A DNA stretch of 64,000 nucleotides. It comes from an uncultured Pseudobdellovibrionaceae bacterium. GTDB taxonomy: Bacteria; Bdellovibrionota; Bdellovibrionia; Bdellovibrionales; UBA1609. Position 1 is the stretch's first letter, and each line of letters begins with the position of its first letter. The notes below the pieces were generated by a model, which ran no database searches, was not told the DNA's origin, and saw only the letters and a list, made by a program, of their open reading frames with translations. A program made the position numbers and the translations under genes. The stretch is taken from the NCBI GenBank assembly GCA_963803705.1, contig CAWDNU010000001.1:429836-493835 (forward strand). The letters are read 5' to 3'. Positions 5,275 through 50,562 of this stretch are shown piece by piece.

Positions 5275-5315
5275 TTTTATGGATGGTACGCTGGTTTAAA
5301 GCTTGAAACCTAAGT

Positions 5316-5440
5316 GGGCCTGTTGAAAAAGCATCATCTTCGTTGTTGCCTTCGCTTAAATCTCATTCGACGTAGATAAACTACGACTCATTCGATCTTA
5401 AGCTTGGACGCCTAGAATCTAATACTTTTTCAACAGGCCC
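5316..5440. repeat. nested inverted-repeat element (16-bp perfect outer arms, inner stems and a 9-nt direct repeat)
   Basis: gggcctgttgaaaaag at 5316-5331 is the reverse complement of ctttttcaacaggccc at 5425-5440. Inner pairs are gcttaa 5354-5359 with ttaagc 5398-5403, and cgtag 5371-5375 with ctacg 5381-5385. The direct repeat ctcattcga occurs at 5362-5370 and 5387-5395. Confidence 0.7.
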
Positions 5441-5595
5441 AAGTGATACTTCCAAAACATTATAAAAACAGATAATCGTAAATCTTATATTAGATTGACC
5501 CGTGTTAGCAGCTTCAGAATTGACACAATTTGGCTCAAATTAGTTTAGACAGGATATTGGTCATCACTGTTTTTAATTTCTGATATAACTTTGGA

Positions 5596-18413: not shown

Positions 18414-18416
18414 TAT

Positions 18417-18467
18417 CTAGGTACCAGGTTCTCTAGGTGCCAGGTTCTGCTCTAGGTGCCAGGTTCC
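18417..18467. repeat. three tandem direct repeats CTAGGTRCCAGGTTC
   Basis: ctaggtaccaggttct 18417-18432, ctaggtgccaggttct 18433-18448, ctaggtgccaggttcc 18452-18467. Confidence 0.85.
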
Positions 18468-18592
18468 GAACGCTGGTCACGCTGTGTCTATTAGAGTTAG
18501 ATTCTTAGTTTTAACTTGGTCGCTGACTAATTAGTATTTCAAATGATCAACGCTTATGCAATGAACACGTAAAAAATAAGGCCTACCCGTAT

Positions 18593-28114: not shown

Positions 28115-28223
28115 AGCCTAAGTTTTAGGAAGCGCAGCCCCAAAGGTCAATCTTTAGGCTTTGCATTGCACTGCAAGGCACCTTTTAGGCCAATTTAAGA
28201 AACATTGTTAAATGAATTCCAGG

Positions 28224-28362
28224 AAATATTTGTCTTAATTTATATTCAATGTCAGCATGAAAAGTGAGTTCGGATTGGGACCTTTGGTGTTAGCTAAAAA
28301 AGACCAGCCGTATGTTCGAGCCTTTTCATGCTGACATTGAATATAAATTAAGACAAATATTT
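28224..28362. repeat. long hairpin element: 41-bp perfect inverted arms around a 57-nt spacer
   Basis: aaatatttgtcttaatttatattcaatgtcagcatgaaaag at 28224-28264 is the exact reverse complement of 28322-28362. The spacer ends (tgagttcgg ... gttcgagc) resemble, in reverse orientation, the core ends of the elements at 37301 and 49587. Confidence 0.85.
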
Positions 28363-28407
28363 GCTACAAACTGTTTTAATAACAAGTTTAAAAAATGGAG
28401 ATTTTAT

Positions 28408-35474: not shown

Positions 35475-37316
35475 ATGTGTGGCATAGTTGGGTACTTAGG
35501 CGCAAAAAGCACTAAGAATATATTGTTCGACGGGTTGAAAGCTTTAGAGTACCGAGGTTATGACAGTTCAGGGCTTTGTATTTTGAATCAGGGTCAGTTT
35601 ATAAAGTTTAGGGCACCAGGTAAAATTGTCGAACTTGAAAAAAAAGTTATTGGTAAAAATCTGGAAGGTCATGTTGGCATAGCGCATACCAGATGGGCAA
35701 CACATGGTCCGGCTGTTGAAAAAAATGCTCATCCTCATGAGGTCGGTGACATATGTATTGTCCACAACGGTATCATTGAAAACTACCATACTATTCGGCA
35801 ACAACTTATTAAGCGCGGGGCCAAGATAAATTCAGACACAGACTCTGAGCTTGTAGCACATCTAATTAACGAACAACTAAAGATAAAGGGCGACTTTTAC
35901 AAAGCAGTGGTTGAGGCGCGCAAAATGCTTGAAGGCGCATTCGCTGTACTCGTGATTTCGAAAAAAAATCCAAATGAGTTGATTGCATTTAAATCGGGTC
36001 CCCCAATGATTTTGGCAAAAGGAGAAGACGATTTTTATATAGCCAGCGATGTTCAGGCGGTTATTAAGTACACTAAAACTGTGTACTATTTAAACGACCA
36101 TGAAATGGTACACATCAAAAATAAAGACGCAAGCGTCACTGATATTCAGGGACAAGAAATACCAATTGAATTTGAAACGATTATTTGGAACGCGGAGCAA
36201 GTCGATAAGAATGGCTTTGCTCATTATATGTTAAAGGAAATTTATGAACAGCCGAATGCCGTAAGCTTGGCTTTATTACCACACATTGATTCCGAAACCC
36301 AAACATTAAAGATAAGTGGATTTTACGATTCACTAGATCAAACTAATGAATTTTTAAAAAAAATAAAACGTATTCAAATTATTGCTTGTGGAACAAGTTT
36401 TTACGCAGGTATGTACGGGGAATACGTTTTTGAAAAGTTGGCCGGAATTAGTGTCGATATCGATATTGCTAGCGAATATCGATATCGAAGTCCAATTATA
36501 GATTCTGACACCTTAGTTATTTTTATATCTCAAAGTGGTGAAACTGCGGATACTTTGGCAGCCCTTCGCTTAGCTAAGTCTGCCGGAGCAAGAACTTTAA
36601 GTGTCTGTAACACTTTCAAATCCAGCATAGACCGTGAAAGTGAATTTTCAATTTATATGAACTCAGGCCCAGAAGTAGGTGTCGCAAGCACAAAAGCTTT
36701 TACGTCTACTTTAGCTATCATGGCAACTTTAGGTGTGGCTATAGCCAAAGCCAGGGGTAAGCTATCAGAGCAAGACGAAAAAAAGTGGGTTGAAAGTTTA
36801 CTTAGCCTGCCATTGAAAATGGAGAATGTGCTGGCTTACGACAAATTTTTTAAAAAGGTCAGTCATTCACTAAAAAGTAAAAAAGGATTTTTATACATGG
36901 GGCGCGGGGTGAATTTTCCAATAGCAATGGAAGGAGCGCTAAAGTTAAAAGAACTTGCATATATGCATGCAGAAGGCTTTGCTGCTGGTGAGTTAAAGCA
37001 TGGGCCCATGGCCCTAATTGATGAAGATATGATGATCGTAATTCTATGTCCTGAAGATGACTTGTACGATAAGACAATGAGCAACTTAGAAGAGGTAAAA
37101 GCTAGGAAGGGCTTGGTAATAGGTTTGGGTGATTTGGGTGACACCAAGCTAGAATCTATGTGTGAACATTACCTAGGATTACCGGCGGCGGACTGGATCA
37201 CCTATCCAATACTGGAAACATTACCCCTTCAACTTTTAGCTTACCACGTAGCCAATAGTTTAGGTCATGACGTTGATCAACCAAGAAATTTAGCCAAATC
37301 CGTAACCGTCGAATAG
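35475..37316 (+). CDS. glmS: glutamine--fructose-6-phosphate aminotransferase
   Basis: MCGIVGY N-terminal nucleophile, two SIS domains, canonical C-terminus NLAKSVTVE. Confidence 0.96.
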   Translation: MCGIVGYLGAKSTKNILFDGLKALEYRGYDSSGLCILNQGQFIKFRAPGKIVELEKKVIGKNLEGHVGIAHTRWATHGPAVEKNAHPHEVGDICIVHNGIIENYHTIRQQLIKRGAKINSDTDSELVAHLINEQLKIKGDFYKAVVEARKMLEGAFAVLVISKKNPNELIAFKSGPPMILAKGEDDFYIASDVQAVIKYTKTVYYLNDHEMVHIKNKDASVTDIQGQEIPIEFETIIWNAEQVDKNGFAHYMLKEIYEQPNAVSLALLPHIDSETQTLKISGFYDSLDQTNEFLKKIKRIQIIACGTSFYAGMYGEYVFEKLAGISVDIDIASEYRYRSPIIDSDTLVIFISQSGETADTLAALRLAKSAGARTLSVCNTFKSSIDRESEFSIYMNSGPEVGVASTKAFTSTLAIMATLGVAIAKARGKLSEQDEKKWVESLLSLPLKMENVLAYDKFFKKVSHSLKSKKGFLYMGRGVNFPIAMEGALKLKELAYMHAEGFAAGELKHGPMALIDEDMMIVILCPEDDLYDKTMSNLEEVKARKGLVIGLGDLGDTKLESMCEHYLGLPAADWITYPILETLPLQLLAYHVANSLGHDVDQPRNLAKSVTVE

Positions 37317-37494
37317 AATTTGTAAGATATGTTTTTTAAATTTAATTGTATCATTTATGTATTAAAAAACTCAAACAAACCTTGTCATTTGCCTTGCATA
37401 CGCAAGGCTTCATGCCAACGAACTCGTTTTTAATACATAGATGATACAATTAAATTTAAAAAACATATCTTACAAATTCTATTCGACGGTTACG
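37301..37494. repeat. long hairpin element: 68-bp arms (67/68) around a conserved 58-nt core
   Basis: Arms 37301-37368 and 37427-37494 are reverse complements with one mismatch. The left arm includes the last 13 coding nt and the TAG of glmS. The core 37369-37426 is ~80% identical to the core at 49643-49704. Confidence 0.9.
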
Positions 37495-37507: not shown

Positions 37508-38866
37508 TTAAATATTTAGCCATTGGAAAAAGCTCTTTTTGGCGACGGCAAGTTGGGTGTCTTTTCTTAAGCGCTTTAGGTCAGCCTTTTTGATTTTCTT
37601 TGGCTTTACTTTCGCCAGTGACTCTTCGCTTAATTTTGGTAATAAACTAAAATTTATATTCATAGGTTGATAATTTTCTTTTTCTTCGCGAAGAAAATTA
37701 TACAATGATCCAAAGGCAGACGCACGAGGTGGCGAAGAAAACGTTTGGTCGCTTAGTTTTTGATGAATAAATTTCGCAACTAAAAGTCCAATGCAAGTTG
37801 AATCAAAATATCCTTCTACACCAGTGATTTGTCCTGCAAAAAATAAGTTGGAATTTTTTTTAGAAGATAGATCATCGTTCAGTAACTTTGGCGAATTGAT
37901 ATACATATTTCTATGAATGCTGCCAAGTTTAACAAATTCTGCATTTTCAAGTCCTGGGATCATTGAAAAAATTCTTTTTTGTTCTGGGTAAGCCATTTTA
38001 GTCTGAAAGCCAACCATATTGTAAGCAGTGCCTTCCCTATTATCTTGTCGTAATTGTACTACGGCGTAGCATCCGTGATTTGTATGGGGGTTTCTTAGGC
38101 CTTTATAACTTAGGGGACCAAACCTTAATGTGTTATCACCACGCTCGACGATCTCTTCTATAGGCATACAATTTTCAAAGTAAGGGGTGTTTTTTTCAAA
38201 TTCTTTGGGCTCAATCTTTCGCGCTTGTTTTATTTCATCAATAAGCTTCAAGTACTGTTCGCTGTCCAAAGGGCAGTTTATATAATCACCACCTTTTTCG
38301 CCGTCACCCCACCGATCGGCCTTCCAGCATATGTCCATGTTAACGCTATCTGTAGCTATTATTGGTGCAATAGCATCAAAGAAATAAAGTGAATTCAAAC
38401 CGAAATGTTTTTGCAAATTTTTAGCTAAATCTGATTCAGTAAGTGGGCCAGTGCATACAACAGTAATATCTTTCATATCCTCGATATCTGTTACAATTTG
38501 ATCGATACATTCAATGTTTGGGTGTGAAGTCATAATTTTAGTTAACTGCTTGGAAAATTTTTCTCGGTCTACGCTTAACGACATTCCAGCTGGGACGGCG
38601 TAATCTTTAGCTATTTTTAGAATAATAGATCCAGCCTGTTCAGCTTCCCACTTAAGCTGGCCTGAAGCCGAATAGTTGGTTTGACTGCCAAAAGAGTTTG
38701 AACAAACAAGCTCGCCGAAGTCGGCGCTCTTGTGCGCAGGAGTAAGCTTGATTTTGCGCATTTCAAATAGCTTAACCTTGTAGCCTTGCTCGGCTAACTG
38801 GTAAGCGCATTCAGAGCCAGCTAAGCCTGCGCCAACAACATTTATAATAGGTTTTAAATGACTCAT
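37508..38866 (-). CDS. trmFO: methylenetetrahydrofolate--tRNA-(uracil-5-)-methyltransferase
   Basis: VVGAGLAGSECAYQLA FAD motif; full-length Gid/TrmFO pattern, 452 aa. Confidence 0.9.
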   Translation of the reverse strand: MSHLKPIINVVGAGLAGSECAYQLAEQGYKVKLFEMRKIKLTPAHKSADFGELVCSNSFGSQTNYSASGQLKWEAEQAGSIILKIAKDYAVPAGMSLSVDREKFSKQLTKIMTSHPNIECIDQIVTDIEDMKDITVVCTGPLTESDLAKNLQKHFGLNSLYFFDAIAPIIATDSVNMDICWKADRWGDGEKGGDYINCPLDSEQYLKLIDEIKQARKIEPKEFEKNTPYFENCMPIEEIVERGDNTLRFGPLSYKGLRNPHTNHGCYAVVQLRQDNREGTAYNMVGFQTKMAYPEQKRIFSMIPGLENAEFVKLGSIHRNMYINSPKLLNDDLSSKKNSNLFFAGQITGVEGYFDSTCIGLLVAKFIHQKLSDQTFSSPPRASAFGSLYNFLREEKENYQPMNINFSLLPKLSEESLAKVKPKKIKKADLKRLRKDTQLAVAKKSFFQWLNI

Positions 38867-43827: not shown

Positions 43828-44285
43828 GTTGATGGCATATAGCTATCTGGTTTTATAAAACTGTGAAAATTTTCAGGACATCATCGGGTCTAGGAGTATA
43901 AAATTGGTGTAATTACAAAGCGATTCTGTGTTTAGTCATTTCCCAAGGCAAACTGACTACAAAGATGTATCCATTTGATACGATCTTGTGTCTTAGATCA
44001 AAATCAGAAGGCGCATCAATCAAAGGTGGGGTTTATTTCAAAAGTAAGCGATCAATTAAAACTTGAGACAATATTTAACTTCTCAAAAGGTGAAATAAGA
44101 AATTTAGATGCAATTCTATATTCAAAGTTTCAGAAAGAGGCGTGAAAATAAATATCTTTAATTACTTCTATTGGAGAGCGAGCTTTACTGAGCGGCTTTG
44201 AGGTAATTAACAGATATCGTTGCGCTCAACAATACCTAGTAGAACGAAAAACTTTTTGATCGATGACTTGTGTTTTGTCCTGCGC

Positions 44286-45038
44286 TCAAACAAGCTTATT
44301 TTTAAGAGCTTTCAATTCACTACGTGTAAGTCCATTTTCTAAAAGCATGTTGTCTATATCTATAGATTCTAAAATTTCATCAAAAATTTGCTGCGTATTT
44401 TTACCTTCATTGAACAGAAGCTTTTCTATCAAAATTTTTTGATCGACTTCCTTTTTACTAGCGTACAGTTTGGAGAGGTTTTTATGACTCAGACTGTGAT
44501 CTTTAGCTGACTCTAATGTAGATACATTAGCTAAACATAAAAGTATGAAAGTGATTAGACCAGTTCTATCTCTGCCAGAGGCGCAGTGGAAAAGAACTGC
44601 TCCGGTAGAACAATTTGCTATTTGAGATAAAACAGATGTTGTGATTTCAGGGAACCTCTCTAGATGCGCCTTATAATACAATGGAGTTGACCACTTACCA
44701 GTTTCTCTCCATTTTTTCCAGAAAGGTGGGTCATGCCCACCATCAAGTGAGATATGCACCGTCTTGATTCGCTCGGGACGAGGAAACAAATCTCCTTTAA
44801 TTTCATGTTTAAAGCGGAGGTCGATAACGGTGCGAACACCATAGTCTTCGATATTTGCCCAGTCATTTTTTGTGAAAGCTTCAACTGAATCCGACCTGAT
44901 GATTCTCTTCATTTTAGTGGGTTGTCCGTTTTGGGTTCGAATGCCACCAAGATCACGAACATTAACAGATCCTTCAAACGTAAGTTCTCGTATAGAGGTT
45001 TTCTCTGAAAGCATAACCCATAATAGGTGTTTGCCCAC
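44286..45038 (-). CDS. protein tyrosine/serine phosphatase (CX5R family)
   Basis: Active-site HCASGRDRTG; NVRDLGG N-terminal block. Start GTG 45038 or ATG 45014. Confidence 0.75.
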   Translation of the reverse strand: MGKHLLWVMLSEKTSIRELTFEGSVNVRDLGGIRTQNGQPTKMKRIIRSDSVEAFTKNDWANIEDYGVRTVIDLRFKHEIKGDLFPRPERIKTVHISLDGGHDPPFWKKWRETGKWSTPLYYKAHLERFPEITTSVLSQIANCSTGAVLFHCASGRDRTGLITFILLCLANVSTLESAKDHSLSHKNLSKLYASKKEVDQKILIEKLLFNEGKNTQQIFDEILESIDIDNMLLENGLTRSELKALKNKLV

Positions 45039-49122: not shown

Positions 49123-49602
49123 ATGAAAGTTTTATTTGTTTGTTTAGGAAATATTTGCAGGTCACCTACTGCTGAAGCGGTTCTTAAATTTAAAATTGCA
49201 GAGAAAGACATGGGTGATTTAGTTCAGTGTGATTCTGCTGGGACCTCTGCATTCCACGAAGGGTCTAAAGCAGATATTAGGTCCTCTAATCACGCCAAAC
49301 TAAGGGGATACAACTTAACAAGTGTATCTAGACAGTTACAAACTGATGATTTTTTTGAGTACGATCTAATATTTACAATGGATGATTCTAATTTTGATAA
49401 TGTTCGTGAGCTTGGTGATTCGATCAAAGCCGATCTTTCAAAAGTTAAAAAGTTAACAGATTTTTGCGTTAAGCATGAAATAAACCATGTGCCCGATCCC
49501 TACAAGATGGGTGACGAAGGGTTCGAACAAGTTTTGGATATTATAGAAGATGCTTGTGAACAGATCCTGAAAACAGTGATATTGCCAAACTTTAAAAATT
49601 AA
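49123..49602 (+). CDS. low-molecular-weight protein tyrosine phosphatase
   Basis: VCLGNICRSP P-loop and DPY motif. Confidence 0.88.
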   Translation: MKVLFVCLGNICRSPTAEAVLKFKIAEKDMGDLVQCDSAGTSAFHEGSKADIRSSNHAKLRGYNLTSVSRQLQTDDFFEYDLIFTMDDSNFDNVRELGDSIKADLSKVKKLTDFCVKHEINHVPDPYKMGDEGFEQVLDIIEDACEQILKTVILPNFKN

Positions 49603-49760
49603 TTGTTACATTTTATGTTCAAATAGATATACATCTTAATAGGCTCAAACAAGCATTGGCATTTGACCTGCAAAATAAGGCAGGCCTTCATGCCAAAGAA
49701 CTCGCTATTAAGATGTATATCTATTTGAACATAAAATGTAACAATTAATTTTTAAAGTTT
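49587..49760. repeat. long hairpin element: 56-bp perfect arms around a conserved 62-nt core
   Basis: Arms 49587-49642 and 49705-49760 are exact reverse complements. The left arm includes the last 13 coding nt and the TAA of the LMW-PTP gene. The core 49643-49704 is homologous to 37369-37426. Confidence 0.9.
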
Positions 49761-49767
49761 AGCGATA

Positions 49768-50562
49768 CTATTTTTGACAATTTGGACAGTAGTAAGTCGA
49801 TCTGCCCGCGATTGTTTTATTTAAGATTAATGTTTTGCAATCAAAACAAGGTTTACCAGCTCTAGCGTAAACTCGCCAGAAGATTTGCATTCCGCCAGAT
49901 TTGCCATCAACATTTTTATAATCTTTCAATGTGCTGCCTTTTAAGGTGATTGCTTGATTTAAAACTTTAGTAATTTCAGTAAAAATTTTTATCCAATGAC
50001 TTAGCTTTAGTCTATTGACGACCTTAGATGGTTTGAGGCCAGCTCTAAACAAGATCTCTGAAGCATAAATATTGCCTATTCCAAGAATATTGTTCTGGTT
50101 CATTAAAAAGTTTTTGATATTGGTTTTTGAGTGCTTATGTTTTCGAAAAAAATCAGAAACATCAATTCGATCTTCGATTGGATCGGGACCAAACTTTTCA
50201 AAAATTTTTGATGTATAATCCAAAATATAGCCAAAGCGTCTTGGATCGTTATAAATCAGTTTCTTGTCAGTCCAGGAAAATACTAAATGGTCGTGTTTTA
50301 CAGGCTTGTATTCACTTTCAAAACGCCAGTGTCCGGTCATACCCAAGTGGGATATAAAGCTTAGTCCAGTGGTTTCAAATATTAAAAATTTACCGCGCCT
50401 TTTAACAGATATGAAAGACATACTTTCTATCGCCTTCAAAGTTTTGACGGGCATTAGAAATCGCAGGTCTTTTCTATTAAGTTTAACGTCAATAACTTTG
50501 GACTTGGACAAACCTTTTGTAAGTCCTCGCCTGACTGTCTCTACTTCTGGTAATTCGGGCAT
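49768..50562 (-). CDS. mutM: formamidopyrimidine-DNA glycosylase
   Basis: MPELPEVETVRRGL N-terminus and C-terminal zinc finger CFDC..CPNC. Confidence 0.92.
   Translation of the reverse strand: MPELPEVETVRRGLTKGLSKSKVIDVKLNRKDLRFLMPVKTLKAIESMSFISVKRRGKFLIFETTGLSFISHLGMTGHWRFESEYKPVKHDHLVFSWTDKKLIYNDPRRFGYILDYTSKIFEKFGPDPIEDRIDVSDFFRKHKHSKTNIKNFLMNQNNILGIGNIYASEILFRAGLKPSKVVNRLKLSHWIKIFTEITKVLNQAITLKGSTLKDYKNVDGKSGGMQIFWRVYARAGKPCFDCKTLILNKTIAGRSTYYCPNCQK

Follow-up and report, generated by a model that had tools for sequence, protein, structure and literature searches.

Hairpin elements with a conserved core and arms at least partly copied from neighbouring DNA in an uncultured Pseudobdellovibrionaceae bacterium

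How does a hairpin of 188 bases come to fill the junction between two convergent genes, with one arm that begins inside the first gene and another that ends at the stop codon of the second? The question is raised by a 64,000-nucleotide stretch of DNA (the window) from an uncultured Pseudobdellovibrionaceae bacterium (GenBank assembly GCA_963803705.1, contig CAWDNU010000001.1, positions 429,836 to 493,835 of the forward strand), in which the gene for a low-molecular-weight protein-tyrosine phosphatase (PTP) and mutM converge on such a structure, copy 2 of the family described here. Three features define this family: its core of 57-62 nt, the conserved termini RCTCRAACA and GAACTCR, and long arms on either side. 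The account that we favour, tentatively and at somewhat less than an even chance, is that a non-coding element restricted to this lineage is dispersed in at least three copies over the window, and that fold-back template switching made the arms around its structured core, lengthened them and has kept them in perfect match.

Three hairpins with one kind of core

Inspection of the PTP/mutM junction base by base, outward from the core, reveals 56 uninterrupted pairs (49587-49642 with 49705-49760), exactly as an earlier analysis from the letters alone, hereafter the sequence-only reading, had described them together with the intervening 62-nt core. A repeat search of the window extends this inverted repeat to arms of 63 nt that are 97% complementary and lie 62 nt apart (Table 1). 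Beyond the perfect pairs, 5 of 7 positions still pair, followed by 7 of 17 against the ~30% expected in AT-rich DNA, and this outermost pairing is indistinguishable from background. The PTP reading frame ends at 49602, within the left arm, so that the arm does begin inside the phosphatase gene. On the other side, the perfect arm stops 7 nt and the 63-nt arm 0 nt from the mutM stop codon; the 7 nt, like the 13 nt that separate copy 1 from the trmFO stop codon, agree with the distances first reported. Folded as RNA, the whole 188-base element reaches -98.2 kcal/mol versus -31.1 +/- 3.7 kcal/mol for shuffled sequences (z = -17.9), and folded as DNA it reaches -66.9 kcal/mol (z = -16.7). The stability of the copy 2 hairpin is far above chance.

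Hairpins of the same kind occur at two further loci. Copy 1, at the glmS/trmFO junction, has arms of 68 nt that are 99% complementary around a 58-nt spacer, and copy 3 (28221-28365), which the sequence-only reading did not include, has a spacer of 57 nt and lies between a divergently transcribed HD-domain gene and thyA. Together with copy 2 these are the three strongest inverted repeats of the window, with spacers of 58, 62 and 57 nt for copies 1 to 3; the next-best inverted repeats are 27-32 nt long at 75-85%. The pattern CTC[AG]AACA-N30-55-GAACTC[AG] has exactly three matches in the 64 kb (mean in shuffled sequence, 0.015), and each match is the spacer of one copy. The evidence for the family is thus drawn from three copies within one window. 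The earlier placement of the hairpins between convergent genes holds for copies 1 and 2 and fails for copy 3, which sits in a divergent pair.

Comparison of cores 1 and 2 establishes their homology: their 62-column alignment has 58 columns without gaps, 47 of them identical, and they score E values of 3.5e-18 and 1.5e-15 with nhmmer and 92 and 83 bits with a covariance model. A 3' core motif (18 specified bases, 19 nt with one N) and a 5' motif of 22 nt have exactly two matches each in the window, where 0.01-0.06 would be expected. With homologous cores at both loci, the description of copy 2 as the second copy of a repeated hairpin element stands. A local segmental duplication is not the source of the similarity, since neither the flanking genes nor the arms are the same at the two loci. 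Cores 1 and 2 each form a two-tier stem-loop with an outer stem TTGGCAT/ATGCCAA and an inner stem of 7 pairs, and their folding beats that of shuffled sequences on both strands (z from -2.3 to -3.9). One inner-stem pair has changed on both sides between the two (C-G versus T-A), and each copy contains one mismatched pair. Core 3 folds weakly. Searches of the window with a covariance model and with nhmmer, both based on cores 1 and 2, yielded no additional copies and did not detect copy 3 either. The termini are the best-conserved part of the core, even in the diverged copy 3; they are not mutually complementary, so the junction of arm and core is an obligatory bubble, and both strands start GCTCAA when read away from the stem.

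Other resemblances to core 2 were attributed to chance. A 16-nt exact identity (ATTTGACCTGCAAAAT) with the antisense of the trmFO codons for FFAGQIT in relatives yields nhmmer E values of 0.15-1.7; sites of this kind lie in the window's own trmFO (37815-37848, a gapped version) and on the relatives' contigs L064 (11022-11048) and L050 (340-374). The 12-mer GCTCAAACAAGC, which equals the 5' end of core 2, recurs at 44284-44295 with a covariance-model E of 0.5, and there it overlaps the stop codon of a Y_phosphatase3 gene. Beside copy 3, upstream of the HD-domain gene (28125-28195), three spaced TTTAGG motifs and small palindromes (CCTAAgttTTAGG, TTGCAttgcacTGCAA) may form an operator region.

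Table 1. Window coordinates of the three hairpin copies and of the genes that meet at copy 2
Feature	Position	Strand	Remarks
Left arm, copy 1	37301-37368	+	Opens with 16 nt from the 3' end of glmS (..SVTVE, stop codon 37314-37316)
Core, copy 1	37369-37426	+	58 nt; orientation as in copy 2
Right arm, copy 1	37427-37494	+	Contains the glmS end in reverse complement; stops 13 nt short of the trmFO stop codon (37508-37510)
Left arm, copy 2	49580-49642	+	Last ~7 PTP codons, TAA stop codon (49600-49602) and 40 nt of downstream DNA
Core, copy 2	49643-49704	+	62 nt; 5' terminus GCTCAAACA (49643-49651), 3' terminus GAACTCG (49698-49704)
Core stems, copy 2	outer 49656-49662 / 49690-49696; inner 49665-49671 / 49680-49686	+	
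Right arm, copy 2	49705-49767	+	Reverse complement of the left arm; last base precedes the mutM stop codon (49768-49770)
Left arm, copy 3	28221-28264	+	41 nt perfect, 44 nt at 98%
Core, copy 3	28265-28321	-	57 nt; opposite orientation; only the termini (GCTCGAACA ... GAACTCA) and the general layout in common with copies 1 and 2
Right arm, copy 3	28322-28365	+	42 nt upstream of the thyA start (28408)
PTP gene (low-molecular-weight protein-tyrosine phosphatase)	49123-49602	+	3' end inside the left arm of copy 2
mutM (Fpg) gene	49768-50562	-	Convergent with PTP; right arm of copy 2 reaches its stop codon

Origin of the arms

Between copies the arms are unrelated (pairwise alignments p 0.2-0.86), with the exception of one 28-nt block in copies 1 and 2; those of copy 3 match neither of the others. 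This block, which the sequence-only reading had proposed as common to both sets of arms, does exist (23 of 28 positions identical, one gap; p = 0.004 against mononucleotide shuffles), but it stands only marginally above background, being equalled in 3 of 214 AT-matched genomic windows, and its origin is as ambiguous as was then suspected. The distance that separates it from the core is 8 nt in copy 1 and 24 nt in copy 2, where it spans the PTP stop codon. Arm length also varies (68, 63 and 44 nt for copies 1 to 3), and long perfect arms occur in the window only around these cores.

Copy 1 reveals where part of its arms came from. Its left arm opens with the last 16 nt of glmS (SVTVE and the stop codon), and its right arm carries their exact reverse complement. 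The GlmS C-terminus (..SVTVE) is conserved across GlmS proteins. At least this part of the right arm was therefore copied from the left flank, and the sequence indicates that the arms of copy 1 are at least partly of local making. The left arm was probably the template at copy 2 too, because the core there has the same orientation as in copy 1; the PTP tail is not conserved among homologues, though its length is normal, so that the polarity of copying at copy 2 is only inferred. The template arm thus most likely lies on the 5' side of the core in both copies, a polarity that is certain only for copy 1. The outer stretches of the arms, at the least, repeat neighbouring host DNA in inverted form, with the 3' ends of glmS and the PTP gene included, and the duplication of the upstream gene's stop-codon region that had been claimed for both loci is real. 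The gradual loss of pairing at the outer edge of copy 2 had been taken as an older duplication eroding under coding constraint. We do not follow this interpretation: its basis is a pair of transition mismatches within the outermost 7 nt, and the front of an expanding arm would look alike.

An independent short-k assembly (k = 31) of sequencing run ERR12040027 matches the window with 0 mismatches, although the run may be the same data as the source assembly. At 4 of the 5 boundaries checked (49616, 37330, 28253 and 28333), its contigs stop 30 nt into the perfect arms. Breaks at this distance and at this k indicate a genuine inverted repeat in the reads. The exception is the contig on the mutM side of copy 2 (Logan L047), whose first base is 49769, right at the arm's outer edge, where 49731 was expected; this may be due to a polymorphism at 49768 or to a structural variant that ends at the arm edge.

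In a compact chromosome of 37% GC, the genes around copy 2 are those for Sua5, PTP, MutM, a 73-aa protein and LexA, and gene order around copies 1 and 2 is conserved in relatives. No long inverted repeat was found in 35 kb of the relatives' syntenic loci. In one relative (L048, GCA_041740515.1) 9 nt separate the convergent PTP and mutM genes, compared with 165 nt in the window, although at 63% PTP identity this genome is distant and only approximates the ancestral state; in another (L050) a ribosome-hibernation gene lies between the two. The closest relative (TrmFO 82% identical; JGI contigs L064-L068) has its glmS/trmFO junction filled by a 212-aa gene (L064, 11346-12098; also on L065, L067 and L068), and the L064 spacer shrinks to ~3 nt once that element is discounted. 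Other convergent spacers of the window range from overlap up to 170 nt, with an apparent gap of 637 nt filled by a gene, and the junctions of copies 2 and 1 measure 165 and 191 nt. Subtraction of the core and one arm leaves 40 and 65 nt, a typical spacer.

Proposed template switching and its rivals

Reported template-switch events are mostly short (a few to ~30 nt) and located at arbitrary quasipalindromes, whereas arms of 44-68 nt are found here only around one conserved, dispersed core; a specific nucleating element is therefore implied. In the proposed mechanism this would be the core of ~57-62 nt, with its fixed single-stranded termini (5' RCTCRAACA, 3' GAACTCR) around the two-tier stem-loop. 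The core hairpin would nucleate fold-back (intramolecular) template switching during replication or repair, one flank would serve as template, and the other side would be written or overwritten with an inverted copy. The same local process would lengthen the arms and keep them perfect, and their growth would stop where a neighbouring gene would suffer, at the mutM stop codon (0 nt) and 13 nt before that of trmFO. The findings are those expected of a template switch, in that one arm is an inverted copy of adjacent sequence and a repeat-free junction exists in L048, albeit in a distant relative. Four papers (PMC8604942, PMC13100816, PMC8794818, PMC5941160) document template switching that homogenises and expands inverted-repeat arms and creates RNA hairpins. 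Inverted repeats made or extended in this way (quasipalindrome correction) resemble ours in having one arm that is an exact inverted copy of its neighbour, near-perfect arms and an asymmetric spacer.

Several points weigh against this account. The case is built on only three copies, and as none was recovered elsewhere, copy 1 is the sole one for which the direction of copying is known. For an ordinary template switch the primer end must pair over a few bases; the non-pairing core termini cannot prime copying, and the first short arm must have had another origin. If the 9-nt and ~3-nt spacers of the relatives are ancestral, they suggest that most of each arm is net insertion and not overwritten spacer, and pure length-neutral expansion of the arms is therefore insufficient. 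Movement of the core, transcript ends and processing at the hairpins are all putative.

Inspection of known systems reveals no match to this combination of a conserved centre with locus-specific arms built from the flanks: repetitive extragenic palindromic (REP) sequences and REPINs, miniature inverted-repeat transposable elements (MITEs), IS200/IS605 derivatives, attC sites, retrons and terminators each fail on at least one tested feature. REP/REPIN sequences, with their REP-associated tyrosine transposases (RAYTs), come close in being short intergenic hairpin repeats, often at gene ends, that lack terminal inverted repeats and target-site duplications, and the same lineage has a RAYT gene with 29-nt inverted REPs at glmS/trmFO as well as a REP copy in the window. 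In REPINs, however, the arms are conserved and the spacer varies, whereas our elements are conserved at the centre and have arms copied from the flank of each locus; a conserved palindromic arm of 20-40 nt is absent, the conserved part being the spacer. The core also has no sequence in common with the lineage's REP, and no transposase has so far been linked to it. MITEs (Correia/NEMIS, ERIC, RPE, Nezha) are likewise intergenic, of ~145-195 nt, with transcripts that would fold into long stems. Correia transcripts are substrates of RNase III and affect neighbouring mRNA. In contrast to our elements, MITEs carry terminal inverted repeats that are alike from copy to copy and are bordered by direct target-site duplications; in the three copies, the arms are not conserved beyond the one block described above, and the bases outside the arms (CAGTGA / CTATTT, AAATC / ATTGG and GAATTCC / ACAAAC) form no direct duplication. 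The IS200/IS605-derived PATE elements have neither terminal inverted repeats nor target duplication, and our hairpin with its single-stranded flanks resembles a Y1 transposase substrate. PATE elements differ in having two distinct subterminal hairpins, in inserting 3' of a fixed tetra- or pentanucleotide and in producing no inverted flank duplication; the family here has left flanks that end in AAAAA, AATAG and AAAAG and a single two-tier hairpin. Unlike those of integron attC sites, the termini GCTCAAAC and GAACTCG are not complementary and the centre is conserved, not variable. For retrons, no reverse transcriptase was found among the neighbours of copy 2 or the 40 window open reading frames scanned with Pfam. 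Intrinsic (bidirectional) terminators share the position between convergent genes and the T-runs after the stem on both strands; they have a short GC-rich stem with a small loop of 3-8 nt and a U-tract directly behind it, in contrast to the 63-bp AT-rich stem and 62-nt structured interior of copy 2, and one family member, copy 3, lies in a divergent promoter region.

Wider searches recovered no further copies. Rfam gave 0 matches for the whole window at gathering thresholds, and in permissive mode only plant MIR long-hairpin models far below threshold. Among GTDB representatives, a collection that lacks the source genome, since the core motif did not recover the window's own copies there, the exact motif CTTCATGCCAANGAACTCG gave 45 single hits in unrelated taxa, none of them with the 5' core motif; the sole hit in Bacteriovoracales is inside a pseudouridine synthase gene. 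A search of JGI metagenomes for both termini returned 4 hits, none with inverted flanks, and two exact-motif scans of IMG/VR returned nothing real; these collection scans used exact motifs and are insensitive to diverged copies. In phages and plasmids, blastn with the core as query returned no hit longer than 31 nt and none with E below 2.

The non-pairing termini, the suggested net insertion of DNA and the typical spacer that is left after subtracting core and arm together mean that an insertion-coupled origin keeps substantial weight, although we regard it as unlikely. A new small mobile element without inverted repeats of its own would, on insertion, make an inverted target duplication by copying 44-68 nt of its 5' flank in reverse. 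A dedicated enzyme would read the RCTCRAACA / GAACTCR termini and the hairpin and would either cut and paste the core or copy it, and a Y1 HUH transposase (IS200/RAYT-type) encoded elsewhere in the genome, acting on single-stranded DNA, is a candidate. Conservation of the termini even in copy 3 is what recognition or cleavage sites would show, the lack of both terminal inverted repeats and direct target duplications recalls single-strand transposons, the spacer lengths fit a net gain of core plus arm in a short spacer, and the mutM-side unitig starts at the outer edge of the putative copied arm and not 30 nt inside it. The lineage also has RAYT-type transposases. The 212-aa product at the closest relative's glmS/trmFO junction scores 29.2 bits with Pfam Y1_Tnp (threshold 23) and E = 8e-18 with the NCBIfam model for REP-associated tyrosine transposase, below that model's cut-off; its gene lies between perfect inverted repeats of 29 nt (GGTGCCAGGTTCCGAATCCTGGTCACA), which reach right up to both stop codons. 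Within the window, a REP-like hairpin cluster of three partial tandem copies (19-nt period) lies between the DivIVA gene and a DCC1-like gene (18416-18481) and includes a full REP copy (18455-18481, GGTGCCAGGTTCCGAACGCTGGTCACG) that is identical at 24 of 27 positions to these repeats. RAYT-like homologues are widespread in Bdellovibrio-like metagenome-assembled genomes, and the nearest named homologues of the window genes come from such genomes labelled Bdellovibrionaceae or Pseudobdellovibrio. Y1 single-strand transposases and their hairpin substrates thus appear to be active in this lineage, one of them at the copy 1 junction, which we treat as a lead only. The repeat around the relative's gene is a different one, however, and the cores have no similarity to it; the idea that the core is a remnant of that RAYT element, prompted by an ATGCCAA noticed by eye at the start of the gene, was dropped after local alignment gave p 0.18-0.66. 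Further weight against a mobile element comes from the 40 window open reading frames scanned with Pfam, which include no transposase, integrase or reverse transcriptase, and from the other window genes, which look like housekeeping genes by product or by Pfam on the syntenic loci. The left flanks show no clear target motif, and the arms differ in length from copy to copy. A literature phrase search found no inverted target duplication by a bacterial transposase, and we know of no precedent for one. A conventional miniature transposon, with long terminal inverted repeats borne by the element, evolving in concert within a copy and drifting between copies, and with the outer 16-23 nt as later extensions, is rather unlikely. 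At 82% identity the 28-nt block comes near the core identity of 81-88%, and with spacers of 9 nt (L048) and ~3 nt (L064) in relatives most of the 40-52 nt between stop codon and core may have been imported; against this, the block sits at unequal distances from the core, reaches only the ~1% level against AT-matched genomic windows and has no counterpart in copy 3, direct duplications are lacking outside the arms, and the glmS-derived part would still require local copying.

Selection by the host for an RNA element at convergent gene pairs, with the core as a functional RNA or a protein-binding module in a bidirectional terminator, a stabiliser of mRNA 3' ends or an RNase III site, seems quite improbable. 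It would account for the two of three copies that fill convergent junctions with arms abutting both stop codons, for the extreme stability of the stem, for the T-runs after it on both strands and for the partly conserved core stems with one compensatory change. A consensus scan found no terminator-like site in 49580-49767, 37301-37494 or 28221-28365, however, and copy 3 lies just upstream of thyA between divergent genes, where a terminator makes no sense; the terminator reading offered earlier is therefore not upheld. The T-run after the right arm of copy 2 is the Gln-Lys-stop codons of mutM read backwards, Rfam provides no family for the element beyond generic plant miRNA long-hairpin models below threshold, and the same junctions lack it in relatives. 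An artefact of assembly or amplification, such as a fold-back chimera, is barely credible. The possible identity of ERR12040027 with the source data would leave room for one, as would the frame-split gene described below (997-2399), which hints at some sequence errors. Against it stand three copies with one conserved core, each inside a contig of 710,784 nt between intact genes, the 0-mismatch unitigs, which run from the flank 30 nt into the arm at either side of copy 3 and at the left side of copies 1 and 2, and the imperfect outer pairing, unlike the product of a chimera.

Possible consequences for RNA and wider meaning

Fold-back template switching around a dispersed core, the origin that we prefer, might still leave a mark on transcripts. 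Both convergent mRNAs at such a junction would end in a stem of 63-68 bp followed by T-runs. By analogy with REP and Correia elements, this stem could impede read-through and 3' exonucleases and form a substrate for RNase III. Putative promoters in the arms are no more numerous than in shuffled sequence. We infer that any role in termination or stability is a by-product and not the reason for the element's existence, because there are no terminator hits and no Rfam match, copy 3 lies between divergent genes and the relatives do without the elements.

Elsewhere in the window, a 2-oxoacid dehydrogenase E2 (acyltransferase) gene at 997-2399 is split into three open reading frames in three frames (lipoyl, E3-binding and catalytic domains), and is either a pseudogene or affected by indel errors in its linker regions. 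A weaker inverted repeat at 5315-5441 (27 nt, 85%) has a 73-nt spacer in which a direct repeat, CTCATTCGA, flanks a small hairpin; this element shows no relationship to the core family, and Rfam gave no match to it.

Known hairpin repeats (REP/REPIN, MITEs, Correia, ERIC) bring their own arms, whereas here the arms come from neighbouring DNA, with the last codons of essential genes among it. Involvement of an enzyme would make this a new outcome of transposition, an inverted target duplication. Each element at a convergent pair would put a double-stranded RNA stem of 60 bp on both mRNA 3' ends and should affect stability and read-through. If the arrangement is general across the genome, it would explain assembly breaks at such sites in this lineage and would provide a natural system for the origin, growth and tolerance of long perfect palindromes in a compact chromosome.

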